Source: a virus. From it: DNA of 64,000 nucleotides. Made by a program: the position numbers and the translations under genes. Position 1 is the stretch's first letter, and each line of letters starts with the position of its first letter. Shown piece by piece: positions 15,468-39,032 of the stretch. The notes under the pieces were generated by a model. The model had not been told where the DNA came from and did no database searches. It was given only the letters and a program-made list of their open reading frames with translations. The stretch is from the IMG/VR virus record IMGVR_UViG_3300028581_000013; one strand, given 5' to 3'.

Positions 15468-16032
15468 AATTTTTAAGTATGATACAGAAGTAGCTTCCAA
15501 AGTTGAAGTAAAAAAACAACAATCGAAATATTTTAAATTGGTAAATGAAAACGATCCAATTTTAAAACAGGTATTACCACAATTTGATTTTAAAAATCCT
15601 CCCGTTAATCCAGAAGAATTTGTGGAGTCTTTAGCCGAAACCTGTAAACTTCATCGTGGTATTGGACTGTCAGCAAATCAATGTGGATTTTCATATCGTG
15701 TATTTGTAATGGGTGCCGGAGATGAATATGTGGCATATTTTAATCCTAAGATAACGGCAAAAACCGAAGAAGAAGTTCACATGATAGAAGGTTGTTTATC
15801 TTTTCCTTTTTTAGGTTTAAGGATTACCAGACCAAAAGAAATTATGGTTGAATACCAGAATTATCATGGAGAAATAAAACAGGCAAAATTTGATGGCATA
15901 TCTGCTCGTTGTTTTCAACATGAGCTTGACCACATGAATGGTATCGTGTATACTAGTCATACAAAGCCAATGGCTTTACAGTCAGGTATGAATAAAAGAA
16001 ATAAAATCATGAGAAAGTTGAAACTCAAATAA
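15460..16032 (+). CDS. def: Peptide deformylase
   Basis: GIGLSANQ, EGCLS, QHELDH motifs. Confidence 0.95.
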   Translation: MSEIFKYDTEVASKVEVKKQQSKYFKLVNENDPILKQVLPQFDFKNPPVNPEEFVESLAETCKLHRGIGLSANQCGFSYRVFVMGAGDEYVAYFNPKITAKTEEEVHMIEGCLSFPFLGLRITRPKEIMVEYQNYHGEIKQAKFDGISARCFQHELDHMNGIVYTSHTKPMALQSGMNKRNKIMRKLKLK

Positions 16033-17297
16033 TGGCAAGAGTAGAACCCGTAGAAACACAATGGAAAAGGTGGACAGAAAAAAATCCATCGGACCAGATT
16101 CGGCATATTGATAAAGAACAGTTAACAAAAACTGTTACTCAAGATTTAGAATATGCCTCTCAAATGGATGTTCGTGAATATACTTTATATCAAAAATGGT
16201 GTGAAGTAAAAGAAAGATATCCAGGCAAAGCTAGTGTGAATATGTTTGGTGATCCAGATATTTCTTGGGAAGATGATGCACAAGCAGCTATTATAAACAA
16301 AGTAAAAAACAATATTTGGGTTCCTAAAGATGTGGATGATTTTCAAAACCTAGAACCTCAAATGTATCTGGCTAATACTAATCGTGTTGATGAATGGAAT
16401 GCTATAAGAACATTTTCTTCTACAATGAAAAACAATTCTAATATTGGAAGAAATTTATATTACATTGTTAAAGATAAAAAAACGAATAAGTATCTTGGTG
16501 TTATCTGTATCTCATCAGACTTTTTAGATTTAACTCCTAGAGATAAAGCAATTGGCTGGTCCAGAGATGTGAAAACATCACAGAGTATGATTAACCACAC
16601 AGCAATAGGTTCAACAATTGTACCACTACAACCTCTTGGATATAATTACATGGGTGGTAAATTACTCGCATTATTATGTTTATCTGACAAAGTTCAAAAT
16701 GATTGGAAAGAAAGATATGGTGATGTTTTGGTAGGAGTTACAACCACTTCATTATATGGAAAAACTAAAGCGGGTGGTCTTTCTCAATATGACGGCCTCG
16801 AGCATTGGAATTCTATGGGATTCTCCTCTGGCTCTGTTGCCTTTGAACCAACAAAACAAACCAAACAGTTGATTTTTGATTGGATAAAAGAAAACCATAC
16901 TCGCAAATATTTTGAATGGTGGGAAGCAAAGAATCCACAAGGATTGCCACTCAAACGAGATCACAAAAATCGTTCATTACATTTTGCTTATCCAAAACTT
17001 GGTATATCAAAAGACAAAACTAGAACAGAACACCAACGTGGTATATATTTTAGTTATCTCTATAATAACACTTGTGAATTTTTACGAAAAGAAATTACAG
17101 AAGATAAACTGGTAAAGTCGTTTGATACCAGTGAAGAAGCGTTAACAAACATCTGGAAAACAAAGTATGCCAAAGGTCGTATTCGGCAACTACAAAAGAA
17201 AAACAATGTTTCATATGAAACACTTTTCTATGATGATTTGATTTATTTAACTTGGGAAGAAACCAAGGCAAAGTATTTGCCACAAGTTGGCAGATAA
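16032..17297 (+). CDS. DUF4338/DruA-like protein, paralog 1
   Basis: QPLGYNYMGGKLLA and TTTSLYG..SQYDG motifs shared with 37923..39032; family assignment from recall. Confidence 0.6.
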   Translation: MARVEPVETQWKRWTEKNPSDQIRHIDKEQLTKTVTQDLEYASQMDVREYTLYQKWCEVKERYPGKASVNMFGDPDISWEDDAQAAIINKVKNNIWVPKDVDDFQNLEPQMYLANTNRVDEWNAIRTFSSTMKNNSNIGRNLYYIVKDKKTNKYLGVICISSDFLDLTPRDKAIGWSRDVKTSQSMINHTAIGSTIVPLQPLGYNYMGGKLLALLCLSDKVQNDWKERYGDVLVGVTTTSLYGKTKAGGLSQYDGLEHWNSMGFSSGSVAFEPTKQTKQLIFDWIKENHTRKYFEWWEAKNPQGLPLKRDHKNRSLHFAYPKLGISKDKTRTEHQRGIYFSYLYNNTCEFLRKEITEDKLVKSFDTSEEALTNIWKTKYAKGRIRQLQKKNNVSYETLFYDDLIYLTWEETKAKYLPQVGR

Positions 17298-17318
17298 TCA
17301 AGTATGCCACAAATATAC

Positions 17319-17348
17319 TTGACACACACACATATATAATGTTATGAT
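17319..17348 (+). promoter_or_regulatory. Sigma70-type early promoter
   Basis: TTGACA-18 nt-TATGAT with TGn. Confidence 0.7.
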
Positions 17349-17403
17349 GTGAGAACTTGCAATACGCAAGGATTTATTTTTAACTATGATTGGAGTTTAT
17401 ATA

Positions 17404-17673
17404 ATGGCTAAGTTATCAGCTAAAGAGCGCATGCTCAACACACTAAAGAAGCAAGACGGTTATAACACTTTTACAACTGCTCAAGCACAACGCCGTTTCG
17501 GCATCAGCAATGTTTCTGCTCGTATCGATGAGCTGCGTCAAGAAGGTCATTGCATCTATACTAACACCCGCACAACCGGTGATGGTCGTAAAGTTAGTTT
17601 CTATCGTTTAGGTACACCAACTAAAGCGATGGTTCAAGCTGCCTTACGTGCTGGGTATTCTTTCGCAGCCTAA
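17404..17673 (+). CDS. Small winged-HTH DNA-binding protein
   Basis: FTTAQAQRRFGISNVSARIDELRQEG..I; GGAG RBS. Confidence 0.75.
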   Translation: MAKLSAKERMLNTLKKQDGYNTFTTAQAQRRFGISNVSARIDELRQEGHCIYTNTRTTGDGRKVSFYRLGTPTKAMVQAALRAGYSFAA

Positions 17674-17685
17674 TTTAAGGTTATA

Positions 17686-17717
17686 GGGGAAGTCGTTCAT
17701 CGGCATCCCCTTTTTTT
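17686..17717 (+). terminator. Intrinsic terminator
   Basis: GGGGAAGTCG-ttcat-CGGCATCCCC-T7. Confidence 0.8.
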
Positions 17718-17732
17718 ATTCTCGGAGAACAA

Positions 17733-18551
17733 ATGGAAATTTCAATAAAAAAAGAGGACTTACAAAAGAAAAGTCTATTCGTAGCCACACCAATGTATGG
17801 TGGCATGAATCATGGACTATACATGAAAGCTTGTTTAGACTTACAAGGAATGTGTGTTCAATACGGAATTAATATTAAATTTTCATTTCTTTTCAACGAA
17901 TCATTAATCACTCGTGCCAGAAACTATTTGGTGGACGAATTCATTCATCGTTCTGATTGCACACATATGTTGTTTATTGATTCCGATATTCATTTTAATC
18001 CACAAGATGTGATTGCTTTATTGGCCATGGACAATGAAGTTTCTGGTGGTCCTTATCCCAAGAAAGCAATTAAGTGGAAATCTGTAAAGACTGCTATTGT
18101 AAAAAATCCTGAAATTGATCCTGCTATTTTAGAAAAAGTTACTGGTGATTATGTTTTCAATCCAGTCAAAGGTACAGCACAATTTAATGTTACTGAACCA
18201 TTAGAAGTATTGGAGATTGGTACAGGATTTATGATGATTAAACGTGATGTTTTTAAAAAGATGGAAGAAGCATATCCAATGATTCGTTATAAACCAGACC
18301 ATGTTGGTCAACAACACTTTGATGGCACTCGCTACATTCATGCTTTCTTTGATACGGTTATTGACACAAAAGATAGTATTGTTGGCGGTGGTTCTGAGCG
18401 ATATCTAAGTGAAGATTATATGTTTTGCCAAATGTGGCGTAAGATTGGTGGTAAAATTCATTTGTGTCCTTGGATGAGAACATCTCATATTGGTACGTAT
18501 CATTTCCAAGGAGATATGCCAGCTGTGGCCAATTTTGTTGGAGAAATGTAA
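17733..18551 (+). CDS. GT-A fold glycosyltransferase-like protein
   Basis: ESLITRARN, LFIDSDI (DxD), GTGFMMI, LSEDYMFC. Confidence 0.7.
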   Translation: MEISIKKEDLQKKSLFVATPMYGGMNHGLYMKACLDLQGMCVQYGINIKFSFLFNESLITRARNYLVDEFIHRSDCTHMLFIDSDIHFNPQDVIALLAMDNEVSGGPYPKKAIKWKSVKTAIVKNPEIDPAILEKVTGDYVFNPVKGTAQFNVTEPLEVLEIGTGFMMIKRDVFKKMEEAYPMIRYKPDHVGQQHFDGTRYIHAFFDTVIDTKDSIVGGGSERYLSEDYMFCQMWRKIGGKIHLCPWMRTSHIGTYHFQGDMPAVANFVGEM

Positions 18552-18910
18552 TGAGTGATGTGAATGGTCCTTTTGGTTATAAAATTGCAGATGAGGTTAA
18601 GGCTTCACAAAATGCAACCACCGGGGGCCGTAAATTTGATGGTGGTAAATTACAATACGGGTTATTACCGCCAGCAGCTTTAAAAGCAACAGTTGAAATC
18701 CTTACGTTTGGTGCAGAAAAGTATGAACCAGACAATTGGAAGTATGTACCAGATTCTAAACGTAGGTATTTTGATGCCATGCAACGGCACCTGTGGGCTT
18801 GGAAAGAAGGAGAGATTAGTGATCCTGAATCTGGTAAACATCACTTGGCACACGCAATGTGCTGCTTGATGTTTCTGTATGAACATGATACAATATATTC
18901 GAAGCAGTAA
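18551..18910 (+). CDS. dATP/dGTP diphosphohydrolase domain protein (DUF5664-like)
   Basis: GRKFDGGK, GAEKY..DNW, RHLWAW, DPESGKHHLAHA. Confidence 0.85.
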   Translation: MSDVNGPFGYKIADEVKASQNATTGGRKFDGGKLQYGLLPPAALKATVEILTFGAEKYEPDNWKYVPDSKRRYFDAMQRHLWAWKEGEISDPESGKHHLAHAMCCLMFLYEHDTIYSKQ

Positions 18911-18930
18911 TTTTTATAATGGAGAAAACA

Positions 18931-19602
18931 ATGAAGTTATCAAATGAAACATTGGCAGTATTAAAGAATTTTTCGGCAATCAATCAAGGCATTCAGTTTA
19001 AGAAAGGCACAAAACTTACCACAGTATCCGCTGGTAAAACTGTTTTGGCACAAGCCACTCTTAAAGATGAATTTCCACAAGACTTTTGTGTATATGATTT
19101 GAATCAATTTTTGTCGGTACATTCTTTACATAAAGATTCTGAATTGAGTTTTGACGATTCAAATGTTATTTTTAAATCTGGTCGTTCTAGTACAAAGTAT
19201 CGTAAAACGGCAAAAGAAATGATTGTAACTCCTCCAGAGAAAGAAATCTCTTTGCCTTCTGTTGATGTGTCTTTCACTTTAACAGAAGAAGATTATGCAA
19301 ACATCATGAAGGTAGCTAGTGTGTTGGGTTCGCCACACATTGCTGTTGAATCTGATGGAGAGTTCGTTCAATTGGCAGCTTTTGATTCTCTAGACGATTC
19401 GGCTCACACCAACTCGATTCAAGTTGGCCAAGGTGATGGTAAAAAGTATAAGATTGTTTTCAAGACTGAAAATATCAAATTAATTCCTGGAAGTTATTCT
19501 GTTGAAATTTCTTTCAAAGGTATTGGCCACTTTAAAAATACTAAAGATGCCATTGAGTATTGGATTGCTTTTGAAGCAAAAGAAACAAAGATTGGAGATT
19601 AA
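18931..19602 (+). CDS. gp45: Sliding clamp gp45
   Basis: MKLSNETLAVLKNFSAINQ, YDLNQFLS, YWIA; precedes gp44. Confidence 0.95.
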   Translation: MKLSNETLAVLKNFSAINQGIQFKKGTKLTTVSAGKTVLAQATLKDEFPQDFCVYDLNQFLSVHSLHKDSELSFDDSNVIFKSGRSSTKYRKTAKEMIVTPPEKEISLPSVDVSFTLTEEDYANIMKVASVLGSPHIAVESDGEFVQLAAFDSLDDSAHTNSIQVGQGDGKKYKIVFKTENIKLIPGSYSVEISFKGIGHFKNTKDAIEYWIAFEAKETKIGD

Positions 19603-19603
19603 T

Positions 19604-19795
19604 ATGTTGGTTAATTTTACTGATTCCACAACAAATGAATCTATTGCTATCAACTTAGCCAATCTAGTTTGTGTCTTTACAGTTAAAGAAGAAGGCGTTG
19701 AGAAAACAGTTATCAATATGATTAATGGTAACGTTGCTGTAAAAGAAAACTATTTGGAAACTGTTGGTAGAATCAATGCAGAAATGCCTAGGTAA
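19604..19795 (+). CDS. Small hypothetical protein
   Basis: GGAG RBS, ATG 19604, 63 aa. Confidence 0.6.
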   Translation: MLVNFTDSTTNESIAINLANLVCVFTVKEEGVEKTVINMINGNVAVKENYLETVGRINAEMPR

Positions 19796-19851
19796 TTATT
19801 TTGAAAGTAGTAAAGAAGTGTTGAGAAGTTATTATATTATGGGAGTGTTAA

Positions 19852-20787
19852 ATGGAACATTTACTTTGGGTCGAGAAGTACCGTCCAAAAACAATTGAAG
19901 ATTGTATTTTACCAGATGCGATCAAGGAAACTTTTCAGGAGTACGTTAAAAGAAAAGAAATACCAAATCTTCTTTTATCTGGTACGGCAGGTGTCGGAAA
20001 AACAACTGTTGCTAAAGCTTTATGCAATGAGGTTGGTTGTGATTTTATTGTCATCAATGGCTCTGACGAGTCTGGCATTGATGTGCTTCGCAACAAAATT
20101 AAGAATTATGCTTCATCAGTTTCTCTCACTGGCGGCCGAAAAGTCATCATCATTGATGAGGCTGATTATCTTAACCCTAATTCGACTCAACCTGCTTTAC
20201 GGGGAGCCATTGAAGAATTCTCATCGAATTGCTCGTTCATCTTCACATGCAATTTCAAAAACCGTATTATCGATCCAATACACTCTCGGTGTTCTGTTAT
20301 TGATTTTAAAATCAACGGTTCTAAACCAAAACTGGCTGCACAATTCTTTAAAAGAGTTGAAGGTATCTTACAACAAGAGAATATCAAATATTCAAAAGAT
20401 GTTGTCGCATCCATCATCACGAAACACTTTCCTGACAATCGAAGAATTCTTAACGAACTTCAGCGTTATTCTGTGTCAGGTTCGATTGATAGTGGGATTC
20501 TGTCTAATATTGCTGATATACAACTTGATAATCTTATTAAGTCGTTAAAAGAAAAAGACTTTGCCTCTGCTCGTAAGTGGGTCACCAACAATCTAGATAA
20601 TGATCCTGTTAAAGTTTATCGCAAACTTTATGATGGTCTATATGATGCTCTTGATGCCAGTTCAGTTCCACAACTTGTTCTTATTCTTGCTAAGTATCAA
20701 TATCAATCCGCTTTTGTGGCTGACCACGAAATCAATATGACTGCTTGTTTAACCGAAATTATGGTAGATTGTGAGTTTAAAAAATGA
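19852..20787 (+). CDS. gp44: Clamp loader AAA+ subunit gp44
   Basis: WVEKYRP, GTAGVGKT, DEAD, SRC. Confidence 0.97.
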   Translation: MEHLLWVEKYRPKTIEDCILPDAIKETFQEYVKRKEIPNLLLSGTAGVGKTTVAKALCNEVGCDFIVINGSDESGIDVLRNKIKNYASSVSLTGGRKVIIIDEADYLNPNSTQPALRGAIEEFSSNCSFIFTCNFKNRIIDPIHSRCSVIDFKINGSKPKLAAQFFKRVEGILQQENIKYSKDVVASIITKHFPDNRRILNELQRYSVSGSIDSGILSNIADIQLDNLIKSLKEKDFASARKWVTNNLDNDPVKVYRKLYDGLYDALDASSVPQLVLILAKYQYQSAFVADHEINMTACLTEIMVDCEFKK

Positions 20788-21392
20788 CTTATTATGAAAA
20801 ACATTTAACTTTAAATTGGGTTCATGTTAATCAAATTTATAGATATTCGAATAACATTACAGCAGCAGTGTATGCTTGGGCTTGGTTGAATAAAGAACCT
20901 AACAAAAAAACTTGGCCTTGTGATATAAAAGATACATTTTATATTGGTATGAGTGGTGGATTGGAAGATGATTTTATAGCCGATAGAAAGGAAAAACACA
21001 GAGTTCCAGCACTAACAACTAGGTTTCACCTTAGAATGAAACAACATATAGGTTTTTTTCGTAATCCAAATGCAAAATTTGGAAAACAAGCTTTAAAATA
21101 TAATTTATATCATGAATTGTTTAATGAAGAAACGACACAAAATAAAGAATTGTATTGTGCAATTATGATTCCTAAAGATAATGTTTCTAGAGTTGGTTTG
21201 AGAAATAGATTGGAATTAATTGAATCGGAATTGAAAGAAGTATATTGTGAGAATTTTCATGAGATTCCTGTTTTATGTTTAGCAGAAAAAGATAATGTTA
21301 CTGATTCGATGAAAAATTATAATTCAATTTCTCAACAAAAAATTAGAGAACATGAACAATCTAGTTTAATAAGGTTTTTTAAAAATGACTAA
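20784..21392 (+). CDS. Putative GIY-YIG-like endonuclease
   Basis: AVY...FYIGMS, downstream R-x-x-x-H and E; AT-rich insertion between gp44 and gp62. Confidence 0.45.
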   Translation: MTYYEKHLTLNWVHVNQIYRYSNNITAAVYAWAWLNKEPNKKTWPCDIKDTFYIGMSGGLEDDFIADRKEKHRVPALTTRFHLRMKQHIGFFRNPNAKFGKQALKYNLYHELFNEETTQNKELYCAIMIPKDNVSRVGLRNRLELIESELKEVYCENFHEIPVLCLAEKDNVTDSMKNYNSISQQKIREHEQSSLIRFFKND

Positions 21393-23733: not shown

Positions 23734-23903
23734 ATTGGTTGAAATATTCTGGTTGTAATATTACATTAAAATTAAATCCATTTCATTGGAGATTAAATTT
23801 CAGTAAAGGTAGTGAGAATGATGCTTGGGAAATTTCAACATCATATATTATTGAATTATTACCTATCACGATCCGAATATGGATTGATGACGGTAGTTGG
23901 TAG
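23730..23903 (+). CDS. Small hypothetical protein (57 aa, not in ORF track)
   Basis: ATGA overlap; MNWLKYSG...IRIWIDDGSW*. Confidence 0.55.
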   Translation: MNWLKYSGCNITLKLNPFHWRLNFSKGSENDAWEISTSYIIELLPITIRIWIDDGSW

Positions 23904-23910
23904 ACCAAAG

Positions 23911-23985
23911 GGGCCTTTAGCATATCGGTAGATGCGTCCGGCTCATAACCGGTTGAAGAAAGTTCAACTCTTTCAAGGCCCACCA
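23911..23985 (+). tRNA. tRNA with CAU anticodon, probably Ile2 (lysidine-type)
   Basis: Cloverleaf GGGCCTT/AAGGCCC-A-CCA, loop CT-CAT-AA; C4:G69 and C5:G68 match TilS determinants. Confidence 0.85.
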
Positions 23986-24338
23986 ATATTGTTTTCTGGA
24001 TAATGTGTTTCCATGTGGCAGTTATGACAAAGCACAACACATTTTTTGGCTTCTTGTAAAAGTTTATCAAATTTTGTGTTGGAACAATGTCTAAGATCCA
24101 ATGTAAACTCTTTATCGTGTAAATGGTGAAAACATAATGCAGAATAATTTTTTTTGTATCCACAAATATTACATTGGCCACCTAGTGTGTTTAATAATTT
24201 AATTTTGTTTTTTTCTCCACGAACTCTTTGAGATTTATATGCTTGATTTCTTATATTACTACTTTTCATTTTACAAGAAACTGAGCAATACATTTTTTGC
24301 AAACCAGTTAGTTTATTTGAACATATTTTACAATTCAT
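23973..24338 (-). CDS. HNH endonuclease with zinc-finger motifs
   Basis: CKIC..YCSVSC; CNICG..FHH...LCHNCH; AGGAGG RBS. Confidence 0.8.
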   Translation of the reverse strand: MNCKICSNKLTGLQKMYCSVSCKMKSSNIRNQAYKSQRVRGEKNKIKLLNTLGGQCNICGYKKNYSALCFHHLHDKEFTLDLRHCSNTKFDKLLQEAKKCVVLCHNCHMETHYPENNIGGP

Positions 24339-24896: not shown

Positions 24897-25433
24897 ATGC
24901 AACTCAGTATAATCGGATGTCCCGATAAGAAACGCTTTCGACCTTTTGTTAAGCGTGCGGCTATTTTTTATGCCGGACAACTGATGACACCTAAAATGAT
25001 AGAAAACATTAGTGTCCGTATTAAGTTTGATCCAAAACTTGATGCTCTTGGATATGCAGAAGTATTGGATTATAATGATAGCAATAAACCTAGAGAGTTT
25101 CAGATTGAAATAAATCCTTTATGTGGTTCACATGATATATTGGAAACTATAGCACACGAAATGGTTCATGTTAAACAATATGTGTATGGCGAAACCAATG
25201 AATATGGTACACGATGGAGAGGTCAAAGAATTACCGAAAATATGGATTATTATGATGAGCCATGGGAAATAGAAGCACACGGGTTATCCACAGGATTGTT
25301 TACCAAATTTGCTATCAAAGAAAAATTATGGGAAGTGTTTAGTGATGTTCGTAATCCGGATGCACCACTCAAACCAGAACCAATAGCATGGTTAAATATA
25401 CCACAAATAAGTGTTGACAATCACACTATATAA
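24897..25433 (+). CDS. Putative zinc metallopeptidase (HExxH)
   Basis: AHEMVHVKQY...PWEIEA. Confidence 0.7.
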   Translation: MQLSIIGCPDKKRFRPFVKRAAIFYAGQLMTPKMIENISVRIKFDPKLDALGYAEVLDYNDSNKPREFQIEINPLCGSHDILETIAHEMVHVKQYVYGETNEYGTRWRGQRITENMDYYDEPWEIEAHGLSTGLFTKFAIKEKLWEVFSDVRNPDAPLKPEPIAWLNIPQISVDNHTI

Positions 25434-25442
25434 TGTTATAGT
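25414..25442 (+). promoter_or_regulatory. Sigma70 early promoter for the atypical tRNA-Gly
   Basis: TTGACA-17 nt-TATAGT with TGn, 9 nt before the tRNA. Confidence 0.8.
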
Positions 25443-25451: not shown

Positions 25452-25521
25452 GCGGTCGGGGTATAGAACCAGAGTAGGTGTCCAACTTACTCATCTAGTG
25501 CGAATCTAGACCACCGCTCCA
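25452..25521 (+). tRNA. Atypical tRNA-Gly(UCC)-like RNA, 70 nt
   Basis: Acceptor GCGGTCG/CCACCGC, U73, encoded CCA; anticodon loop TG-TCC-AA; T-arm TCTAG-TGCGAAT-CTAGA; minimal D-arm. Confidence 0.75.
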
Positions 25522-25541: not shown

Positions 25542-25715
25542 ATGGCAGTTTCAAAATCAAAAAAGAAAAATCCAATGTTGACTAAAAATGGCAAGCCAAG
25601 ATTAGGTCCATTAAATCTTAAACAGCTTAATGATATGTTAGAAAAATCTAGTAGACCAAAAGATAAAGCTAAGATTCAAAAACGCATCACCGAATTGGCT
25701 GCACGGCCCCTTTAG
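25542..25715 (+). CDS. Small basic hypothetical protein (57 aa, not in ORF track)
   Basis: AAGGA RBS; MAVSKSKKKNPM...ELAARPL*; stop lies inside the tRNA-Thr 5' end. Confidence 0.55.
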   Translation: MAVSKSKKKNPMLTKNGKPRLGPLNLKQLNDMLEKSSRPKDKAKIQKRITELAARPL

Positions 25716-25779
25716 TTAAATGGTATAACGCTAGATTTGTAATCTTGAATTGTTAGTTCGATTCTATCAAGGGGCACCA
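25706..25779 (+). tRNA. tRNA-Thr(UGU)
   Basis: GCCCCTT/AAGGGGC-A-CCA, anticodon loop TT-TGT-AA, TTCGATT T-loop. Confidence 0.9.
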
Positions 25780-26372
25780 TTAGGAGGATTCATAAAATTT
25801 TCAATTAAAGTTGTAACATCACCATATTGATAATCTTCAAGCATTTCGATGACAATATCAACAATTTGAATTTGTCTTATGAAATTTTGTAATTCGTTTT
25901 CATGGTTCTTTAATTGATTTTCGGCAAACATTTTTAACATATTTTCACCTTGCTCATTTTTCTTTTTAATTTTTTTGATTATTTTTTTTAATCTGAATAT
26001 GTAACCATTACAAGTATTAATGTTATTGTTTATGTTTAGTTTTTCTCGCCTACTTTCATTTTTCATAATCAGTATTAGATCATCAAGATCGGGATTAATG
26101 TTTGGAAGTAAATTGAAAAATAACCGACTAAGTTGTTCTAGAGCTTGATCACGGAGACTTGTACCAGATTCGTAATGACCGGTGGTGTCGTATTTTTTTC
26201 TGTTAACGGGATCACTTAAAACTTCATAGGCGTTTTTTATTTCCTTGAATATTTCAGGATCGCCGCCTTTGTCTGGATGATGTTGTTGAGCGAGTGATTT
26301 ATATTTGGCTTTAATTTCTTCAAATGTTGCATTTTTAGAAACGCCTAAGATATCATATAGATTTTTATTCAT
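25767..26372 (-). CDS. J-domain (DnaJ-like) protein
   Basis: LYDILGV..HHPDKGGD..AYEVLSD..RKKYD; probable start MNKN at 26372. Confidence 0.88.
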   Translation of the reverse strand: MNKNLYDILGVSKNATFEEIKAKYKSLAQQHHPDKGGDPEIFKEIKNAYEVLSDPVNRKKYDTTGHYESGTSLRDQALEQLSRLFFNLLPNINPDLDDLILIMKNESRREKLNINNNINTCNGYIFRLKKIIKKIKKKNEQGENMLKMFAENQLKNHENELQNFIRQIQIVDIVIEMLEDYQYGDVTTLIENFMNPPNGAP

Positions 26373-26377
26373 ACATG

Positions 26378-26385
26378 TATTTATA
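26378..26385 (-). promoter_or_regulatory. Late promoter for the J-domain gene
   Basis: TATAAATA on minus strand, 5 nt before ATG. Confidence 0.6.
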
Positions 26386-27099
26386 ATGAGTTCCATACCT
26401 AAAATTGCACACGTTGCTTGGAAGACTAAAGATGTGTTCGACAGTAAATCACCACTCATTGTCAATGGTTTGCGCAAACTAATTGATTTGAATCCTGACT
26501 GGACTGTTACAGTACATGATGATAATGATGTGGATGAATATCTAAGAAATGTTTTAAATAAAAGAGATTACAATTTAATTAAAGATATACATATAGTTGA
26601 AAAAACTGATTTATGGAGGCTCTTTAAATTATACAATGAAGGTGGTCTTTACATTGACATTGACCGTTTTTGTAATATACCATTGTCAGCAATTATAACA
26701 GATGGTATAAAGTGTGTATTACCAACTTGTTTGGAGTGGGATTTTTCACAAGACTTTATGTTGACTGAACCTAAAAATCCAATTCAAGCAAAAACAATTG
26801 AATTGATATTACAGAGGCGGTATGAAGGACATAAGAATGTTTTCTTTTTAGGTCCACAAACATACATGCACGCCGTAACAACAGTATTATTTGGTGAAAT
26901 GATTAACACGGATCCTGGTGTTGAGAAGTTTGATGAGATGCGTAAGTATATGGAACAAATTCCGTTTATTAAAACATACAGGGAACATCCACCCCACAAT
27001 ACAATAATTTATAAAGGTGATGGTGTTCTGGACTGGGAAAAATTAAAAAAAGAATTTTATGCTGAGGCCAATATAAAACATTGGTCTGGTGAATGGTAA
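26386..27099 (+). CDS. DxD glycosyltransferase (GT32/OCH1-like)
   Basis: IPKIAH..W, DLWRL..LYNEGGLYIDID, LGP. Confidence 0.8.
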   Translation: MSSIPKIAHVAWKTKDVFDSKSPLIVNGLRKLIDLNPDWTVTVHDDNDVDEYLRNVLNKRDYNLIKDIHIVEKTDLWRLFKLYNEGGLYIDIDRFCNIPLSAIITDGIKCVLPTCLEWDFSQDFMLTEPKNPIQAKTIELILQRRYEGHKNVFFLGPQTYMHAVTTVLFGEMINTDPGVEKFDEMRKYMEQIPFIKTYREHPPHNTIIYKGDGVLDWEKLKKEFYAEANIKHWSGEW

Positions 27100-31397: not shown

Positions 31398-33928
31398 GTA
31401 ATTTTTATACTAATGTGCAGAGTATCGGTGGCAACATACTCTATCGTGGAATACAAAACGGCAAGAAAATAAAGACAAAGGTTGAGTATGCTCCATCTTT
31501 GTTTTTGCCATCCAAAAAAATCACCAACTTCACAAGTCTTGAGGGTGATTACCTAGACGAGAAAAAGTTTCCATCAATCAAAACAGCCAGAGATTATATC
31601 AAACAATTTGAAGGTGTTTCTAGTGCATCAAAGATTTATGGCCAAACTCGATTTGAATATGCCTTTATTGCCGACCAACATCAAGGTATGGTTGATTATG
31701 ATTATGAAAAAGTATCAATCGCTGTAATCGATATTGAAGTCGGTTCTGAGAATGGCTTTCCTGATCCATACGAAGCAAACGAACCCATCACAGCAATCTG
31801 TTTAAAATTTCTCAATGGCAAACCAATCGTATTTGGCTGTGGTGAATATCAAGTTGAAGAAGGTGAAATCTATATTCGTTGTAAAGATGAATACAATCTT
31901 TGTAAGAAATTTCTTGAGTTTTGGAAAGACAAATATCCAGATATCGTAACTGGCTGGAACACCAAGTTCTTTGATATACCATATCTCATCAATCGTTTTC
32001 GCAAGATTCTAGGTGACGATGAAGTCAAGAAACTATCACCATGGAATTTCATTACAGAACGCAAAGCATATGTAAACAATCGACAGTTGATTGATTACAC
32101 ACTTGTTGGACTATCTTCACTTGATTACATTGAACTATACAAATGGTACGCACCGGGTGGTAAGTCACAAGAGTCATATCGTTTGGATAATATCGCACAA
32201 GTAGAACTTGGTGAAGGCAAGATTGCATATGATGAATATGATAACCTTCATTCTTTGTATCGATTAAACTTTCAAAAGTTTATTGAGTACAACATTAAAG
32301 ACGTTGAACTCATTATCAAACTTGAAGATAAATTAAAACTGCTTGAACTGGCAGTAACTCTTGCATACGATACCAAATCAAACTTTGAAGATGTGTTTGC
32401 TCAAACTCGTATGTGGGACGCTCTAACATATTCTTATCTCCGTGATAAAGATATTATTGTTCCACCACGAGTAGTCAAAGATAAAGATGCAGCATTTGAA
32501 GGTGCCTATGTTAAAGTACCGCAAGTTGGTCTCCATAATTGGGTTGCTTCATTTGATTTGAACTCTCTATATCCACATTTGATGATGCAGTATAATATCT
32601 CACCCGAAACACTCATTGAACCAGAGAATTATACAGATGAAATGCGTGAGATTCTTTCACAAGGCGTTTCTGTTGATGGACTTTTGAAAAAAGGAATTGA
32701 TACTTCAAAATTAAAAGGTGCAACACTAACACCTAATGGCCAATTCTTTCGCACTGATTTTCAAGGTTTCTTGCCTAAGATGATGGAAGAAATGTATACA
32801 GACAGAAGTAAGTTTAAGAAGTTGATGTTACAAGCAAAACAGGAATATGAAAATGAAACAGATAGCTCGAAGAAATATGAAATTGAGAAACGAATCGCCA
32901 AATATAACAACATTCAGTTGGCAAAAAAAGTATCTCTCAACTCTGCTTATGGTGCTTTGGGTAGTCAGTATTTCCGTTTCTACGATTTGCGGATGGCTCT
33001 TGGCGTCACTACTGCTGGCCAATTAAGTATTCGTTGGATCGAAAATAAAATTAACGATTACATGAATAAATTATTAAAGAGTGAGAAAGATTATGTTATT
33101 GCATCGGATACAGATTCGATTTATCTCAACCTTGGCCCATTGGTTGATAGTATTGTTAAAACAAAAACAGAAATTACTAAAGTTATCTCCATCATGGATC
33201 GTGTTTGTGAAGATAAAATTCAACCTTTTATTGATAAAAGTTATCAGGAACTTGCAGAATATGTGTGTGCATTTTCCCAAAAAATGGAAATGAAACGAGA
33301 AGGCCTTTCTAACAAAGGTATCTGGACTGCCAAGAAACGATATATTTTGAATGTCTATAATAACGAAGGTGTACAATACAAAGAACCACAGATGAAAGTC
33401 ATGGGTCTAGAGATGATTAAATCTTCCACACCTTCCGCTATTCGTGAGAAAATGAAAGAAGCAATTCAATTAATGGTGAGTGGCACAGAGAATGATATCC
33501 ACAAATTCATTGAAGATTTTAGAAAAGAATTTAAAAAACTACCTGTCGAAGAAATTTCATTTCCTCGTGGACTCAATGGTCTAAATACTTATTCTGATTC
33601 ATTGTCTTTATATAAAAAAGGAACACCAATTCATGTTAAAGGTGCTATTCTTTATAATCATAATTTAAATTTAAAAAATCTAACCAAAAAATATCCACTC
33701 ATTCAAGAGGGTGAAAAAGTTAAATTCACCTATCTAAAGATGCCAAATCCATTTAAAGATACTGTTATTTCTTATCCATCTCGTTTACCAAAAGAGTTTG
33801 AATTGCAACAGTATATTGATTATGATATGCAGTTTGAAAAAGCATTCCTAGAACCAATCAAAGTAATTCTTGATTGCATGGGTTGGCGAGTAGAAAAAAC
33901 AAGTTCAATAGAGGATTTCTTCTCATGA
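31394..33928 (+). CDS. gp43: Family B DNA polymerase gp43
   Basis: DIEV exonuclease, SFDLNSLYP, KVSLNSAYG, SDTDS; probable TTG start. Confidence 0.98.
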   Translation: MSNFYTNVQSIGGNILYRGIQNGKKIKTKVEYAPSLFLPSKKITNFTSLEGDYLDEKKFPSIKTARDYIKQFEGVSSASKIYGQTRFEYAFIADQHQGMVDYDYEKVSIAVIDIEVGSENGFPDPYEANEPITAICLKFLNGKPIVFGCGEYQVEEGEIYIRCKDEYNLCKKFLEFWKDKYPDIVTGWNTKFFDIPYLINRFRKILGDDEVKKLSPWNFITERKAYVNNRQLIDYTLVGLSSLDYIELYKWYAPGGKSQESYRLDNIAQVELGEGKIAYDEYDNLHSLYRLNFQKFIEYNIKDVELIIKLEDKLKLLELAVTLAYDTKSNFEDVFAQTRMWDALTYSYLRDKDIIVPPRVVKDKDAAFEGAYVKVPQVGLHNWVASFDLNSLYPHLMMQYNISPETLIEPENYTDEMREILSQGVSVDGLLKKGIDTSKLKGATLTPNGQFFRTDFQGFLPKMMEEMYTDRSKFKKLMLQAKQEYENETDSSKKYEIEKRIAKYNNIQLAKKVSLNSAYGALGSQYFRFYDLRMALGVTTAGQLSIRWIENKINDYMNKLLKSEKDYVIASDTDSIYLNLGPLVDSIVKTKTEITKVISIMDRVCEDKIQPFIDKSYQELAEYVCAFSQKMEMKREGLSNKGIWTAKKRYILNVYNNEGVQYKEPQMKVMGLEMIKSSTPSAIREKMKEAIQLMVSGTENDIHKFIEDFRKEFKKLPVEEISFPRGLNGLNTYSDSLSLYKKGTPIHVKGAILYNHNLNLKNLTKKYPLIQEGEKVKFTYLKMPNPFKDTVISYPSRLPKEFELQQYIDYDMQFEKAFLEPIKVILDCMGWRVEKTSSIEDFFS

Positions 33929-34935
33929 TTATTCTAACATTATTATCAGCATTATTGTTATCTGGTATTGCAGCTTACTATTCGATTATTGGATTGGCTG
34001 CAATTTTTACCGGAGCATTTTGGCCAATCGTTTTTATGGGTTCGGTTCTTGAGATGAGTAAATTAGTTACTGCATCATGGTTATATCGTAATTGGAAAAC
34101 CTGCCCACTTTTATTAAAATCTTATTTGACATCCGCTGTTGTTATATTAATGATAATTACCAGTATGGGTATTTTTGGATTCTTATCGAAAGCTCACATA
34201 GATTCCACACTAGAAGCTGGTGCAAACTCGGTTGAAATACGAACACTCAATCAACAAGAAAAGATTGCGAAAGAACGTTTAGATTATTTACTGAAACGTG
34301 CTGGTAATCCAGAAACGGCATCAGCCAATGTTGATAAACAAATTCAACAAACACAAAAAGAATTGACAGATATTAACAAAAGAAAATTGCCACTTCTTAA
34401 AGAGGAAAATAAGTTAATTGCCGAAGTTGGTCCTATTAAGTATATTGGTGATATGGTATATGGAACTGAAGATAACAATGCCATTGACAAAGCAGTTCGT
34501 TTGGTAATATTGTTAATAATGGTTGTATTTGACCCCTTAGCTGTGTTATTATTGATAGCAGCAAATATGTCATTACAACAAAGAAATGGTATAACTGATA
34601 AAAAAGAAGAAATCATTACTGTTGTACCAGATGTTCCGGTATTTACTGAAAAGAAACCGGACGAAGAAATAGAGAATGATAGAGTTGAAATACCTAAAAA
34701 CAATATTACTTCAATTGACGAAAATGAACAAAAAGAAATTGTAATTGATGCGGCTTCAGGAGAAACTATACCTCCATTAACGGTGCATCAATCACCAGGT
34801 GTTTACACGGAATTTCATGAAGCGGAACAACCAGTTAAAAAATTAGAACCTAAGTATGATTATGAAGAAGAATTTGCTTTTAAAGAAAAAGAAAAAAAAG
34901 CAAAACAAGTTAAATTGGATGGTGGTGACTTTTAA
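33925..34935 (+). CDS. Conserved membrane protein with coiled coil
   Basis: N-terminal TMs (AAYYSIIGL, TSMGIFGFLSKAH), EVGPIKY, VFDPLAVLLLIAAN. Confidence 0.75.
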   Translation: MIILTLLSALLLSGIAAYYSIIGLAAIFTGAFWPIVFMGSVLEMSKLVTASWLYRNWKTCPLLLKSYLTSAVVILMIITSMGIFGFLSKAHIDSTLEAGANSVEIRTLNQQEKIAKERLDYLLKRAGNPETASANVDKQIQQTQKELTDINKRKLPLLKEENKLIAEVGPIKYIGDMVYGTEDNNAIDKAVRLVILLIMVVFDPLAVLLLIAANMSLQQRNGITDKKEEIITVVPDVPVFTEKKPDEEIENDRVEIPKNNITSIDENEQKEIVIDAASGETIPPLTVHQSPGVYTEFHEAEQPVKKLEPKYDYEEEFAFKEKEKKAKQVKLDGGDF

Positions 34936-34944
34936 AGGAATGTT

Positions 34945-36027
34945 ATGAGTATATTAGATAAAATTAAAAAAAATAGTAGTATTAAAGAATCAGCAATTCT
35001 TTCTAAATCGAAATTCTTTACACAAAAGGATATGATTCCGACATCTGTGCCAATTATTAATGTGGCGCTTTCTGGTCGTTTAGATGGAGGCCTAACACCA
35101 GGTCTTACAATGTGGGCCGGCCCATCTAAACATTTTAAAACTGCTTTTAGTTTACTAATGGCAAAAAGTTATTTGGACAAATATGATGATGCAGCGTTAT
35201 TATTCTATGATTCTGAGTTTGGTACTCCTCAGTCTTATTTTGATAGCTTTGGTATTGATACCAACAGAGTTCTACATACACCTCTTACTGATATTGAACA
35301 ATTAAAATTTGATATCATGCAACAGTTAACCAATCTCGAAAGAGGTGATAGGTTGATTATTGTTATCGATTCAATTGGTAATTTGGCTTCAAAGAAAGAA
35401 GTTGAAGATGCTCTAGAAGGTAAATCAGTTGCCGATATGTCCCGTGCCAAACAAGTTAAAAGTTTATTTCGCATGGTGACACCGCATCTCACAATGAAAG
35501 ATGTTCCAATGATTGTGGTAAATCATACATATAAAGAGATTGGTATGTTCCCTAAAGATATCGTTGGTGGTGGAACAGGTTCATATTATTCAGCTGACAA
35601 CATTTTTATTATTGGTCGCCAGCAAGAAAAAGAAGGCACAGAGGTTGTTGGTTACAACTTCATAATTAACGTGGAGAAATCACGCTATGTTAAAGAAAAA
35701 TCTAAAATTCCTGTTACTGTTTCTTTTGATGGGGGTGTTAGCCGGTGGTCAGGCTTACTTGATTTGGCACTTGATTCAGGCCTTGTCGTTAAGCCTTCTA
35801 ACGGGTGGTACAGTAGAGTTGATATTTCTACCGGTGAAATAGAAGCAAAGAAATATAGAATAAAAGAAACAGACACCAAAGATTTTTGGATGCCTATTAT
35901 CACCAGTAAAAAGTTTCAAGATTATGTAACGGACAAATATCAAATTGCAGCTGGTGAAATTATGCAAGGCGGTGTTGATAATTTATTTGATGAGATTGTT
36001 ACCATGAATGGGACTGAGAATGAGTAA
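34945..36027 (+). CDS. uvsX: RecA-like recombinase UvsX
   Basis: AGPSKHFKT, YDSEFG, DSIGNLAS, GGGTG. Confidence 0.97.
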   Translation: MSILDKIKKNSSIKESAILSKSKFFTQKDMIPTSVPIINVALSGRLDGGLTPGLTMWAGPSKHFKTAFSLLMAKSYLDKYDDAALLFYDSEFGTPQSYFDSFGIDTNRVLHTPLTDIEQLKFDIMQQLTNLERGDRLIIVIDSIGNLASKKEVEDALEGKSVADMSRAKQVKSLFRMVTPHLTMKDVPMIVVNHTYKEIGMFPKDIVGGGTGSYYSADNIFIIGRQQEKEGTEVVGYNFIINVEKSRYVKEKSKIPVTVSFDGGVSRWSGLLDLALDSGLVVKPSNGWYSRVDISTGEIEAKKYRIKETDTKDFWMPIITSKKFQDYVTDKYQIAAGEIMQGGVDNLFDEIVTMNGTENE

Positions 36028-36262
36028 TGAAGATGCTAAATTAAAACATTCCAAGCGTATTCAAAAAACTCAAAATCAAATTAAAAAACAAACTAAGATT
36101 GCCAAATCACATGGTATGCCGGTGGATGAACCACACAAATTCGCCAAACATCATGCGATGGACTGTGGTAATCCTGATTGTGTAATGTGTGGTAACCCCA
36201 GAAAAGTGTGGAGAGAAAAAACCATACAAGAAAAAAGATTTGACGAGGTGAAAGATGATTGA
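36020..36262 (+). CDS. Hypothetical protein with CxxxxCxxC motif
   Basis: HHAMDCGNPDCVMCGNPR. Confidence 0.65.
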   Translation: MSNEDAKLKHSKRIQKTQNQIKKQTKIAKSHGMPVDEPHKFAKHHAMDCGNPDCVMCGNPRKVWREKTIQEKRFDEVKDD

Positions 36263-36578
36263 AGGAGTAGATTACTGTTTCATTTACCCAAAAAATGATG
36301 AAACTGCCGTACACATTAAATTTTTAGATGGTCCATATAAAAATACCACATTTAAATATGGTAAGGTAAAATTTAAAGAAGAAGATCAACAGGTGTATTT
36401 ACTTTTTGCTTATGATGTGATAGAATCCACAGTAGACAAGCCAAGAAAGTTGGAAAAAGATACTGATTTTAAAAATTACATTGGTAATTTATTGGTAGAA
36501 ATTATGGGTAGTAACATTGAACAGGAAATAATTGATGAAGCTGGAACAAACGATATTGAAGAACCTCGTTTACAATGA
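36255..36578 (+). CDS. Hypothetical protein in the gp40 (head vertex chaperone) position
   Basis: Between uvsX and gp41; function inferred from synteny only. Confidence 0.5.
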   Translation: MIEGVDYCFIYPKNDETAVHIKFLDGPYKNTTFKYGKVKFKEEDQQVYLLFAYDVIESTVDKPRKLEKDTDFKNYIGNLLVEIMGSNIEQEIIDEAGTNDIEEPRLQ

Positions 36579-37926
36579 GGAATATTTACGAAAAGTTTTA
36601 CCATTTTTAAAGACAGAATATTTTAGTGATAATGTAGAGAGAACATTATTTAATGAAATTACATCATTCACGGAGACTTACAATAACACGGCAACGATTG
36701 AAGCACTTAGTATTGCCGTCAAAGAAAAGAGAAATCTTACAGCTGATGAAGTTCAGAGATGCGAGGACTATCTTCTCGAAATTGAAAAGATTAAGTCTAC
36801 AGAAACCGAGGTTCAATGGCTTGTTGATAAGACCGAAAAATTCTGTCAAGAGAAGGCCATATATAACGCAGTATTGGGGTCTATTTCGATTCTCGATGGC
36901 AAAGATAAAAATCACGACAAAGGCCAGATTCCCAAGATATTATCGGACGCTTTAGCAGTAAGTTTTGATAACTCCGTTGGCCATGACTACTTACAGGACT
37001 CAGATGCTCGATATGAATTCTATCACAGAAAAGAGGAACGAATCCCATTCGACCTCGATTACTTTAACAAGATCACAAAAGGTGGTTTACCAGCTAAGAC
37101 GCTTAACATTGCTTTGGCGGGGACTGGTGTTGGTAAATCTCTTTTTATGTGTCATGTGGCTGCTTCGTGCATGGTTCAGGGTAAAAATGTCCTTTACATC
37201 ACTTTGGAAATGAGTGAAGAAAAGATTGCAGAACGAATTGATGCCAATCTATTGAATGTTACTATTGATGATTTGATTGAGTTACCAAAAGATATGTATG
37301 ATAAAAAAGTTAATCGTGTCCGTGAAAAGACTACAGGCAAACTTATTATCAAAGAATATCCAACCGCTTCAGCATCAACTATTCATTTTAGGACACTATT
37401 AAATGAACTTAATCTCAAGAGGTCTTTTGTACCTGACATTATATTTGTTGACTATCTCAATATTTGTTGTTCTGCTCGTATTAAGGCTGGCGCAAATATT
37501 AATTCCTACACCTACGTTAAAGCAATTGCAGAAGAATTACGTGGCCTTGCTGTTGAGTATAATGTTCCTATTGTATCTGCTACACAAACTACCCGCTCAG
37601 GATTTACTTCCAGTGATCCGGGACTTGAGGATACGAGTGAGTCGTTCGGACTTCCCGCCACCGCAGACTTGATGTTCGCTTTGATTTCTTCTGAAGAACT
37701 AGAAGAACTTGGTCAGATTATGGTTAAACAATTGAAGAATCGATATAATGATCCAACATTCCACAAACGATTTACTCTTGGTGTTGATAGATCCAAAATG
37801 AAACTATATGATGTTGAACAGGCTGCACAAATGGGTATCGCAGATGCTGGCCACGATAAGCCTTTGAACACATTTGGTACCAGAGAAGATAGACCAAAGA
37901 AATCATTTAGTGGATTTAAAGTATGA
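36535..37926 (+). CDS. gp41: Replicative helicase gp41
   Basis: AGTGVGKS, LEMSEE, VDYLNI, ATQTTR, SESFGLPATAD, QLKNRY. Confidence 0.97.
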   Translation: MKLEQTILKNLVYNEEYLRKVLPFLKTEYFSDNVERTLFNEITSFTETYNNTATIEALSIAVKEKRNLTADEVQRCEDYLLEIEKIKSTETEVQWLVDKTEKFCQEKAIYNAVLGSISILDGKDKNHDKGQIPKILSDALAVSFDNSVGHDYLQDSDARYEFYHRKEERIPFDLDYFNKITKGGLPAKTLNIALAGTGVGKSLFMCHVAASCMVQGKNVLYITLEMSEEKIAERIDANLLNVTIDDLIELPKDMYDKKVNRVREKTTGKLIIKEYPTASASTIHFRTLLNELNLKRSFVPDIIFVDYLNICCSARIKAGANINSYTYVKAIAEELRGLAVEYNVPIVSATQTTRSGFTSSDPGLEDTSESFGLPATADLMFALISSEELEELGQIMVKQLKNRYNDPTFHKRFTLGVDRSKMKLYDVEQAAQMGIADAGHDKPLNTFGTREDRPKKSFSGFKV

Positions 37927-39032
37927 TGATCAATAGGGATCAGGCACTTCATTGTGCTGGTGTATTTAAAGATTACTTTAGTAACATTGGAAGTACCGAA
38001 GAATACATGCGTGATGAGAAACTGAAGAATGTGGCTGATATGCCATCTTCTTTATTTCCAATTGAAGATGATTTATTCTCCGATTTCACAATGCACCCAA
38101 AAGATATGGATATTGAAGTGTGTGAAATACCAAACGATGTTTGGGAACCTTTACTTGCCATTACCAGTTCACACATCAATAAAGCACCAGTTGGTAAGAA
38201 TATTCAATTGGCAGTCAAAGAAAGAAACTCAGGAAAGATTCTAGGATTCATTCGTTTGGGTTCACCAGTAATCTATATGAAACCTCGTAATGACTACCTA
38301 GGACAAGTTTGGATTCAAAATGAAGATACTGCCAAGCGGTTCAATACGGCTTGTGTTATGGGTTTCGTAATTGTACCATCTCAACCATTTGGTTTTAATT
38401 ATCTAGGCGGTAAACTTTTATCTGCCATTTGTGCCAGTCATACCGTAAGAGAAATCTGTAATAAAAAATACGATATGAATATCTGCTTGTTTGAAACTAC
38501 CAGTTTATATGGAAGTACCAAATCGGTTTCACAATATGATGGCATGAAACCTTACATTCGTTTTAAAGGCTTAACAGAATCAGATATTGTGCCAATGATG
38601 CACGGCCAAAGATATACTGATTTGAAAAAATACGTGGAGGATATTACTGGTGATTTATTGGGTGGAGATACTTCAACAACGAGTAGAAAACTCAGAACAT
38701 TCACTAAGATTATTGCTCTCACCAAAGCTGCTTTAAAAGGAACACCTGAAGGAGATGCTTTCTCTTTAACGATTGACAATGCCAAAAAGTTGACAGAAAA
38801 GAAACGATATTATATTTCTGATTATGGATTTAAAAATACTGTTGATTACATGAATTGTAAGACCGACAAACTTTTACCTGGTGAAAATTACAAGAAACAT
38901 GAACTATCAAATGTAATCGAATGGTGGCGGAGTAAAGCTATAAATAGATATGAAACCCTTAAAGCTGAGGGTAGATTACGAACAGAACTTGAAGTATGGA
39001 CTTCAGGTAAAGACATTCAAATTATTAGGTAA
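37923..39032 (+). CDS. DUF4338/DruA-like protein, paralog 2
   Basis: QPFGFNYLGGKLLS and ETTSLYG..SQYDG; ATGA-coupled to gp41. Confidence 0.6.
   Translation: MMINRDQALHCAGVFKDYFSNIGSTEEYMRDEKLKNVADMPSSLFPIEDDLFSDFTMHPKDMDIEVCEIPNDVWEPLLAITSSHINKAPVGKNIQLAVKERNSGKILGFIRLGSPVIYMKPRNDYLGQVWIQNEDTAKRFNTACVMGFVIVPSQPFGFNYLGGKLLSAICASHTVREICNKKYDMNICLFETTSLYGSTKSVSQYDGMKPYIRFKGLTESDIVPMMHGQRYTDLKKYVEDITGDLLGGDTSTTSRKLRTFTKIIALTKAALKGTPEGDAFSLTIDNAKKLTEKKRYYISDYGFKNTVDYMNCKTDKLLPGENYKKHELSNVIEWWRSKAINRYETLKAEGRLRTELEVWTSGKDIQIIR
38939..38946 (+). promoter_or_regulatory. Late promoter inside the 3' end of the upstream gene
   Basis: TATAAATA 90 nt before ORF 39036. Confidence 0.5.

Follow-up and report, generated by a model that had tools for sequence, protein, structure and literature searches.

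The mini tRNA at the locus

We analysed a 64,000-nucleotide (nt) stretch of viral DNA (IMG/VR record IMGVR_UViG_3300028581_000013; G+C content, 35%), which is called the window throughout this text. Profile scans of its open reading frames (ORFs) identified the segment from 15 to 39 kb as the replication module of a T4-like myovirus. This segment contains a 70-nt RNA gene derived from tRNA-Gly, hereafter the mini tRNA (25452–25521, plus strand), which was recognised by its fold, conservation and covariation, and two genes for GNAT proteins of the DruA/DUF4338 family: gene A (A type; 16032–17297, plus strand; 421 amino acids, aa) and gene B (B type; 37923–39032, plus strand; 369 aa). A sequence-only reading of the window had proposed that an aberrant tRNA-Gly, expressed from an early promoter, serves as a private glycyl donor with which Mom-related DUF4338-like proteins modify the phage DNA against restriction.

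The mini tRNA folded as a four-way cloverleaf (−25.5 kcal/mol, z −3.2 against shuffled sequences). The acceptor stem has 7 pairs including one C-C mismatch, the D arm has a 3-bp stem and a loop (AUAGA) without GG, and the arm at the anticodon position has an 8-bp stem and a 5-nt loop, GUCCA, that includes CC. The variable loop is replaced by one base, and the T arm has a 5-bp stem with the loop UGCGAAU. The identity elements of bacterial tRNA-Gly for glycyl-tRNA synthetase (GlyRS), as defined in E. coli, are G1-C72, C2-G71, G3-C70, U73, C35 and C36. Read from its sequence, the mini tRNA has all six of these elements and the CCA end: the pairs G1-C66, C2-G65 and G3-C64 and the residue U67 correspond to G1-C72, C2-G71, G3-C70 and U73 in tRNA numbering, CCA is encoded, and we infer that the CC of the loop represents the true positions 35 and 36 despite the 5-nt loop. 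A putative sigma70-type promoter (25414–25442, plus strand) ends 9 nt ahead of G1. As judged by consensus match alone, it is near-consensus, with 11 of 12 matches (TTGACA, 17 nt, and TG-TATAGT as an extended −10 element), and both hexamers and their spacing are kept in about 20 distinct relatives, which agrees with the promoter of the sequence-only reading.

The same 70-mer was present after a SprT-like gene at about 39 IMG/VR loci, and it was 100% identical even where the identity of the upstream SprT-like protein was 67%. A covariance model search detected diverged members of 65–70 nt in more distant contigs, often within tRNA arrays. In several relatives the mini tRNA gene adjoins a canonical tRNA-Gly(UCC) gene, which suggests an origin by duplication. 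Compensatory changes were observed at 15 of the 22 pairs among 11 sequences and at 19 of the 22 pairs among 41 sequences. Pairing was 95–97.5%, in alignments that were fitted to the model and are thereby biased toward pairing, compared with 36–50% when the partners were slid, and the observed score was reached by no shuffle. The structure is secure despite the fitted alignments, given the controls with slid partners and the number of different pair types. The aberrant tRNA-Gly is therefore real, with a cloverleaf that is identical or covarying in relatives, and the RNA is almost certainly a functional, selected derivative of tRNA-Gly.

Comparison across the family showed G1-C72 and C2-G71 in 41 of 41 members and G3-C70 in 39 of 41. 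U73 and the CCA end were encoded in every member found by the covariance model, and CC was present in the loop of all 32 minis (in the contexts GUCCA, UACCC, UGCCC, UUCCA, GCCCA and CCCA). The stems, loop flanks and T loops drift. None of the 32 minis had the D-loop GG, whereas canonical tRNA-Gly genes in the same loci retain it. The T loops of the minis (UGNGAAU, AGCAUAG and similar) lack U54-U55-C56, whereas that of the neighbouring canonical tRNA-Gly is UUCGAUU. Across the minis, the arm at the anticodon position has a stem of 7–9 bp, with a loop of 4–5 nt in most. The comparison with canonical neighbours thus bore out the earlier observation that the RNA keeps glycine identity elements and loses canonical elbow and anticodon-loop features. 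Because the elbow and the anticodon arm have been rebuilt, the RNA is probably unable to decode; it appears to be chargeable with glycine and poorly suited or unsuited to decoding.

Such a molecule might also be read as an unusual decoding tRNA-Gly, in which the long anticodon stem offsets the short D arm and the missing variable region, as in some mitochondrial tRNAs, and which is kept for resisting tRNA-targeting host nucleases. The homologues in the Pelagibacter phages HTVC008M and Mosig fit this reading, since they measure 74 nt and their stem of 5 bp and loop of 7 nt (UUACCAA) are of normal size, and ARAGORN labels the HTVC008M copy tRNA-Gly(ACC); a 7-nt loop can also be drawn for some minis. 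However, the window RNA drawn in this way has a G at the U33 position, and most minis have the shorter loop. Every member has its elbow nucleotides replaced; in the homologues of HTVC008M and Mosig, both the T loops (AGCGUUA, GGCAGUA) and the D loops are aberrant. Many relatives, moreover, encode canonical tRNA-Gly(UCC) and tRNA-Gly(GCC) beside the mini tRNA. We consider a decoding role very unlikely.

ARAGORN made no call at 25452, although it called three ordinary tRNAs (Met, Thr and Met) in the stretch, and it missed every mini, both in the window and at 25 loci. The Rfam tRNA model RF00005 gave no match at 25452–25521 even at E≤10, whereas the three ordinary tRNAs there score 60–65 bits. 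A tmRNA-like domain or another Rfam family was ruled out by the lack of any Rfam match. Searches by blastn with the window type and a 67-nt type of mini tRNA against 50,697 phage records returned nothing, and the copies in isolates were found by the covariance model only. Standard tRNA finders do not detect the minis, which are therefore absent from phage annotations. Two contigs (L200 and L213) and about 16 more carry a full-size, 75-nt tRNA-Gly(GCC) that has a normal anticodon arm but whose T loop is UGCGAAU and whose D loop lacks GG, and they also have DruA genes 6–8 kb away. These variants may represent a halfway step toward the same specialisation.

Downstream of the mini tRNA, a lysine-rich ORF of 57 aa with a Shine-Dalgarno sequence (25542–25715, plus strand) starts 21 nt past its end, and the stop codon of this ORF falls within the 5' end of the tRNA-Thr gene (25706–25779). 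The start context of the ORF is kept in close relatives, and one transcript from the promoter may cover the mini tRNA, the small ORF and tRNA-Thr. We rejected, as the main role of the RNA, that of a mere 5' leader or processing signal for the 57-aa ORF and tRNA-Thr, because in relatives the RNA occurs without the 57-aa ORF, either within tRNA arrays or downstream of DruA or Mom genes. On the minus strand, two ORFs (23783–24338 and 25767–26477), of which one is a DnaJ-domain gene, terminate within the 3' ends of the tRNA-Met and tRNA-Thr genes on the plus strand.

Family, fold and setting of proteins A and B

Both proteins belong to PF14236 (A, E 8.6e-20 and 71.5 bits; B, E 1.9e-8 and 34.2 bits) and score above its curated cut-off of 27 bits. 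The PADLOC DruA profile also matched both A (E 1.5e-17) and B. By hidden Markov model (HMM), A and B thus share the family of DruA from type I Druantia (PF14236, PADLOC DruA); they differ from it in lying in a lytic phage among replication genes. The start codon of gene A overlaps the stop codon of the peptide deformylase gene (TAATG), and gp45, gp44 and gp62 come after gene A; the start codon of gene B overlaps the stop codon of the gp41 helicase gene (ATGA). The two replication-linked DUF4338-like genes of the sequence-only reading are accordingly PF14236 members that adjoin the deformylase gene and the gp41 gene, respectively. Protein B also matched phrog_19197 (E 4e-129), and in isolates of cyanophages and pelagiphages its orthologues either separate gp44 from gp62 or follow gp43. 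No DruB–DruE, including the DUF1998 helicase, turned up in the ORFs scanned at 15.4–39 kb, where no dedicated search for them was made. The near-invariant motifs of the DruA family are S, R, Q-P-x-G, G-G-K and T-T-S-L-x-G.

AlphaFold2 models were obtained with a pLDDT score (predicted local distance difference test) of 93.8 for A and 91.8 for B. In the model of A, an N-terminal helix-helix-helix-strand-strand unit resembling a winged helix is followed by the GNAT core and C-terminal helices. Every structural match of A and B was a GNAT, and the models and structure searches together thus agree with the GNAT fold that the earlier proposal called for; an earlier paper had already described DUF4338 as a GNAT domain (PMC10853773). 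Among 48,161 PDB representatives searched, the phage Mu enzyme Mom (8bv8) ranked first for both A (8bv8_B: Z 9.7, 171 residues aligned, root-mean-square deviation 3.9) and B (Z 9.9, 164 aligned), and rescoring of B against the structures listed by Foldseek again placed Mom 8bv8 at the top (Z 10.0, 179 aligned). Other GNATs aligned over about 140 residues, compared with 164–179 for Mom; FemA gave Z 8.4–8.7. Both models have an insertion of two or three helices before the last strands, placed by the order of secondary-structure elements, which may correspond to that of Mom. In Mom (PF25680), which has a GNAT fold, the helical insertion (residues 175–209) is needed for activity, and the catalytic residues are R111, S124, D149 and R151.

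A Foldseek search of the PDB returned nothing at E≤0.001; malonyl-CoA decarboxylases came closest, but superposed poorly. Searches of PDB sequences with A and B by phmmer and with an HMM of the DruA-like alignment returned no relative. The best BFVD matches of the B model were uncharacterised giant-virus proteins (Faunusvirus, Yasminevirus and Dasosvirus; E 6e-16 to 5e-7), which indicates that the DruA-type fold is also present in Nucleocytoviricota, and the best named match was the Mom of a Salmonella phage.

The other genes identified at 15–39 kb encode the peptide deformylase, the gp45 clamp, the gp44/gp62 clamp loader, RegA, Hsp20, dCMP deaminase, a family-B DNA polymerase, UvsX and the gp41 helicase. 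By tblastn, the nearest cultured relatives were the Pelagibacter myophages Mosig EXVC030M and HTVC008M, in which gene A is 53–58% identical; all closer relatives were uncultured IMG/VR contigs. The phage is a freshwater relative of the SAR11 T4-like phages. Between DruA-A and gp45 (17386–18910, plus strand) lie a winged-helix gene (PF14090), a GT-A-like glycosyltransferase gene (phrog_1574) and a gene for a MazZ-like dATP/dGTP diphosphohydrolase (PF18909). The same set is present in the sister clade described below, after DruA-A and the mini tRNA, and this neighbourhood may be a larger nucleotide or DNA modification module.

Linkage of the RNA with DruA and Mom genes

Among the isolates, HTVC008M has both the A and B types of DruA and Mosig has the A type only; neither has Mom, and both carry the 74-nt variant tRNA-Gly. 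S-SSM7 (B type with Mom) and S-SCSM2R (B type without Mom) have canonical tRNA-Gly only, and S-PRM1 (B type without Mom) has no tRNA-Gly match at all. Melnitz, PX29 and DSL-LC03 have Mom, no DruA and no variant tRNA-Gly. The variant was thus present in 2 of 2 isolates with A-type DruA and in 0 of 6 without it: the RNA tracks the A type, not the B type, nor Mom in general.

In the window clade, DruA was present in 20 of 20 longer IMG/VR contigs and the RNA in 18 of 20, the two misses being fragments of 21–28 kb. The order A, RNA, B was kept in every contig with all three. This is conserved synteny within one clade and proves little by itself. We collected more than 118 viral contigs by a pattern of the variant T loop and the Gly acceptor end, and searched six-frame ORFs of 106 of the pattern contigs with HMMs built from the DruA-like and Mom alignments. 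In 13 contigs, an A-type DruA ORF (about 430 aa) was followed on the same strand, within about 140 nt, by one or two mini tRNAs, the nearest of which lay 48–70 nt behind the gene wherever it could be placed; ARAGORN found no canonical tRNA anywhere in these loci. In this sister clade, gene A is 60–67% identical to that of the window, and the order is deformylase, DruA-A, mini tRNA, about 4 kb of other sequence, winged-helix gene, glycosyltransferase, MazZ-like gene, gp45 and gp44. The differing orders in the two clades indicate that the RNA gene moved relative to gene A yet was retained. Tandem minis were seen behind A-type DruA at L219:287–430, L252:1955–2094 and L259:847–986; in L252 and L259, the gene-proximal mini has the loop UCCCC and an odd 9-nt T loop (GUUUAAC..).

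True Mom genes were found directly before a mini tRNA of the family in two further lineages. In L249, which is clearly a different lineage (its RNA has 71% G+C), the mini tRNA starts 9 nt past the end of a Pfam-confirmed Mom domain, and in L287 it lies 58 nt behind a second Pfam-confirmed Mom gene. Among relatives of the L287 Mom, a tRNA-Gly-like RNA lay 12–62 nt behind Mom in 7 of the 11 with downstream sequence; one of these 7 RNAs has a canonical elbow yet a long anticodon stem. A solitary variant tRNA-Gly directly behind a Mom or DruA-type GNAT gene was thus observed in three separate arrangements. The co-occurrence of RNA and DUF4338-type genes expected from the sequence-only reading was therefore found for the A type in isolates, with the RNA placed behind A-type DruA or true Mom in other lineages. 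When viral contigs were scanned separately with the Mom alignment, the only loci recovered were those of Mu-like prophages, and these were not used further. In L292 (1357–1500), two tandem 70-nt minis of the L287 type come after a 447-aa ORF with a weak GmrSD_N/DUF262 match and are followed by hsp20.

These placements bear on two other roles for the RNA. As a decoy or buffer, the mini tRNA would absorb a host factor that targets tRNA-Gly (GNAT toxins of the TacT/AtaT type, or nucleases), titrate GlyRS, or shield the Gly-tRNA pool of translation from a Mom-like enzyme of the phage. This role suits an RNA that has kept its acceptor end and glycine identity and not its decoding features, GNAT toxins that acetylate Gly-tRNA(Gly) are known (as cited in PMC13219725), and TacT3 matched A with Z 7.9. 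However, a decoy for a host factor leaves the repeated placement behind phage Mom and DruA genes unexplained, and the 5-nt loop is a poor mimic of an anticodon nuclease target; we consider this role unlikely. The RNA might also donate glycine to another acceptor, such as a glycan from the glycosyltransferase clusters of the phage, a protein N-terminus or a lipid, with DruA uninvolved. Transfer of amino acids from tRNA to peptidoglycan, lipids and proteins is established for the Fem, MprF and L/F transferases (PMC13219725), and the window has glycosyltransferase and methyltransferase genes at 17733, 26305 and 27089. However, no match to the Fem, MprF or L/F-transferase families was found by Pfam among 30 ORFs at 15.4–39 kb, and the gene neighbourhoods point to DruA and Mom rather than to glycosyltransferases. 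Donation to such an acceptor appears quite unlikely.

A candidate glycyl carrier for DNA modification

Silva et al. (2026; PMC13219725) reported that Mom moves glycine from Gly-tRNA(Gly) to the N6 of adenine in double-stranded DNA, which confirms the account of Mom in the sequence-only reading as an adenine-modifying GNAT that uses Gly-tRNA(Gly). Mom accepts all three E. coli Gly isoacceptors and rejects Gly-tRNA(Ala), and the study mentions no phage-encoded tRNA (PMC13219725); the structure of Mom has been solved (8BV8). Since one enzyme family found directly ahead of minis consumes Gly-tRNA(Gly), we favour a donor role for the mini tRNA. In the mechanism that we propose, the phage would make a small RNA descended from tRNA-Gly(UCC) that keeps the elements recognised by bacterial GlyRS (the first three pairs of the acceptor stem, U73, C35-C36 and the CCA end). 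Host GlyRS would charge it with glycine, and the glycyl-RNA would serve as a private aminoacyl donor for the DruA-family GNATs of the phage. The A-type DruA would be the likeliest user in this phage, the link being strongest for that type. By analogy with Mom, A and B would pass the glycine to nucleic acid, most likely phage DNA at or near the replisome, and the modification may protect this DNA from host nucleases. DNA is favoured as the acceptor by the precedent of Mom, by the domain of A that resembles a winged helix and by the location of both genes among those of the replisome.

Several results weigh against this proposal. In the window, the RNA is separated from gene A by 8 kb and from gene B by 12 kb, with a putative promoter of its own, and A-type DruA and the RNA share a single broad lineage, so that most of the co-occurrence is not independent. 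The B-type DruA genes of cyanophages and the Mom genes of Melnitz, PX29 and DSL-LC03 occur without a variant tRNA, which means that a private tRNA is not required. Neither A nor B matched PF25680 at E≤0.01, whereas Mu Mom itself scores 253 bits; at E≤1, an HMM from 30 Mom sequences matched nothing in the window; and when the DruA-like alignment was compared with that of Mom by hhalign, the probability was 0.3%. In the structure matches of A and B, ordinary acetyl-CoA GNATs were less than 1 Z behind Mom. Finally, the glycine-rich segment Q-P-x-G...G-G-K lies after beta4, where GNATs bind the pyrophosphate of coenzyme A (CoA), and would fit an acyl-CoA donor.

A and B could be ordinary acyl-CoA acyltransferases, or mimics of Druantia DruA in counter-defence, and their targets could be small molecules, host factors or proteins of the replisome; the mini tRNA would then have no functional connection with them, its adjacency resulting from shared early expression or chance. 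The conservation of the glycine-rich loop in the DruA family, the closeness of generic acetyl-CoA GNATs to Mom, the best Foldseek E-values with malonyl-CoA decarboxylases, the B-type genes without a variant tRNA and the lack of profile similarity to Mom all agree with such an activity. It is at odds with the position of the RNA directly 3' of A-type DruA in 13 contigs and of true Mom in two further lineages, with no canonical tRNA by ARAGORN, and with its restriction among isolates to phages that have A-type DruA. We regard acyl-CoA acyltransferases or mimics of this kind as rather unlikely.

The relationship to Mom that the sequence-only reading had assumed was therefore upheld in part. According to their models, A and B are GNAT-fold proteins whose nearest solved structure is Mom, nominally the best match; they lie outside the Mom family, as no Pfam, HMM or hhalign link to it was found. 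Like Mom, they are GNAT-fold proteins of phages (Z 9.7–10.0 over 164–179 aligned residues), and true Mom genes can directly precede a mini tRNA. In contrast to Mom, they belong to a separate Pfam family without sequence or profile similarity to it, are larger, with extra N- and C-terminal parts, and are encoded among replication genes. Mom itself draws on the ordinary tRNA-Gly of its host, with no private tRNA described so far. The private glycyl donor for DNA modification, in turn, gains from the gene neighbourhoods in relatives and loses from the phages in which B-type DruA or Mom does without one. A dedicated glycyl carrier for DruA-family GNATs is, in our judgment, the most economical explanation of the mini tRNA, and one that falls just short of being probable. 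In its full form, the proposal is that a translation-incompetent, GlyRS-chargeable mini tRNA solely feeds DruA-family GNATs (Mom elsewhere), which aminoacylate phage DNA during replication across a large group of SAR11-type T4-like phages; we put this forward as a possibility that is open to considerable doubt.

The closest parallel to such a carrier is found in Staphylococcus, where non-proteinogenic tRNA-Gly species are donors for FemX, FemA and FemB (Villet et al. 2007, PMC2175331, as cited in PMC13219725). These RNAs also keep glycine identity, have the D-loop GG and other translation-side features replaced, and feed a GNAT-related aminoacyl transferase outside the ribosome, as we propose for the mini tRNA. 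They are full size with normal anticodon loops, are encoded by the cell and serve cell-wall synthesis, and weak binding to EF-Tu is a further hallmark of their type, whereas the minis are 65–70 nt long and phage-encoded, with an anticodon stem of 7–9 bp and a loop of 4–5 nt, and no Fem-family match was found in the window among the 30 ORFs at 15.4–39 kb. In the cyanophage S-SCSM2R, ORF152 was annotated as 'methylcarbamoylase mom' and its structural similarity to Mom was noted (PMC12801897). This protein is a gene B orthologue (49% identity over the full length) whose gene adjoins a clamp-loader gene. That study assumed an acetyl-CoA mechanism and noticed no tRNA, and the canonical tRNA-Gly is the only one in S-SCSM2R. 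The label of ORF152 as a Mom homologue was unsupported by our sequence tests of DruA-like proteins against Mom. Our literature search returned no paper linking DUF4338 to Mom and none describing phage mini tRNA-Gly genes.

That Mom modifies DNA with glycine drawn from the ordinary Gly-tRNA(Gly) of the host was shown only in 2026, and a phage-encoded glycyl carrier shielded from the ribosome, if true, would add a new layer: a co-substrate private to DNA modification, which would thereby be uncoupled from translation. Such a carrier would also be the first tRNA of a virus to be devoted to modifying nucleic acids. As HTVC008M and Mosig are cultured and both have A-type DruA and the variant tRNA-Gly, the idea is directly testable. 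DruA/DUF4338 proteins are widespread, occurring in Druantia defence systems, cyanophages, pelagiphages and giant viruses, and we know of no function for the family, bacterial DruA included. If the proposal is true, DruA/DUF4338 would be a second family of tRNA-dependent DNA-modifying GNATs, with a testable activity and a first biochemical lead for the role of DruA in Druantia defence.

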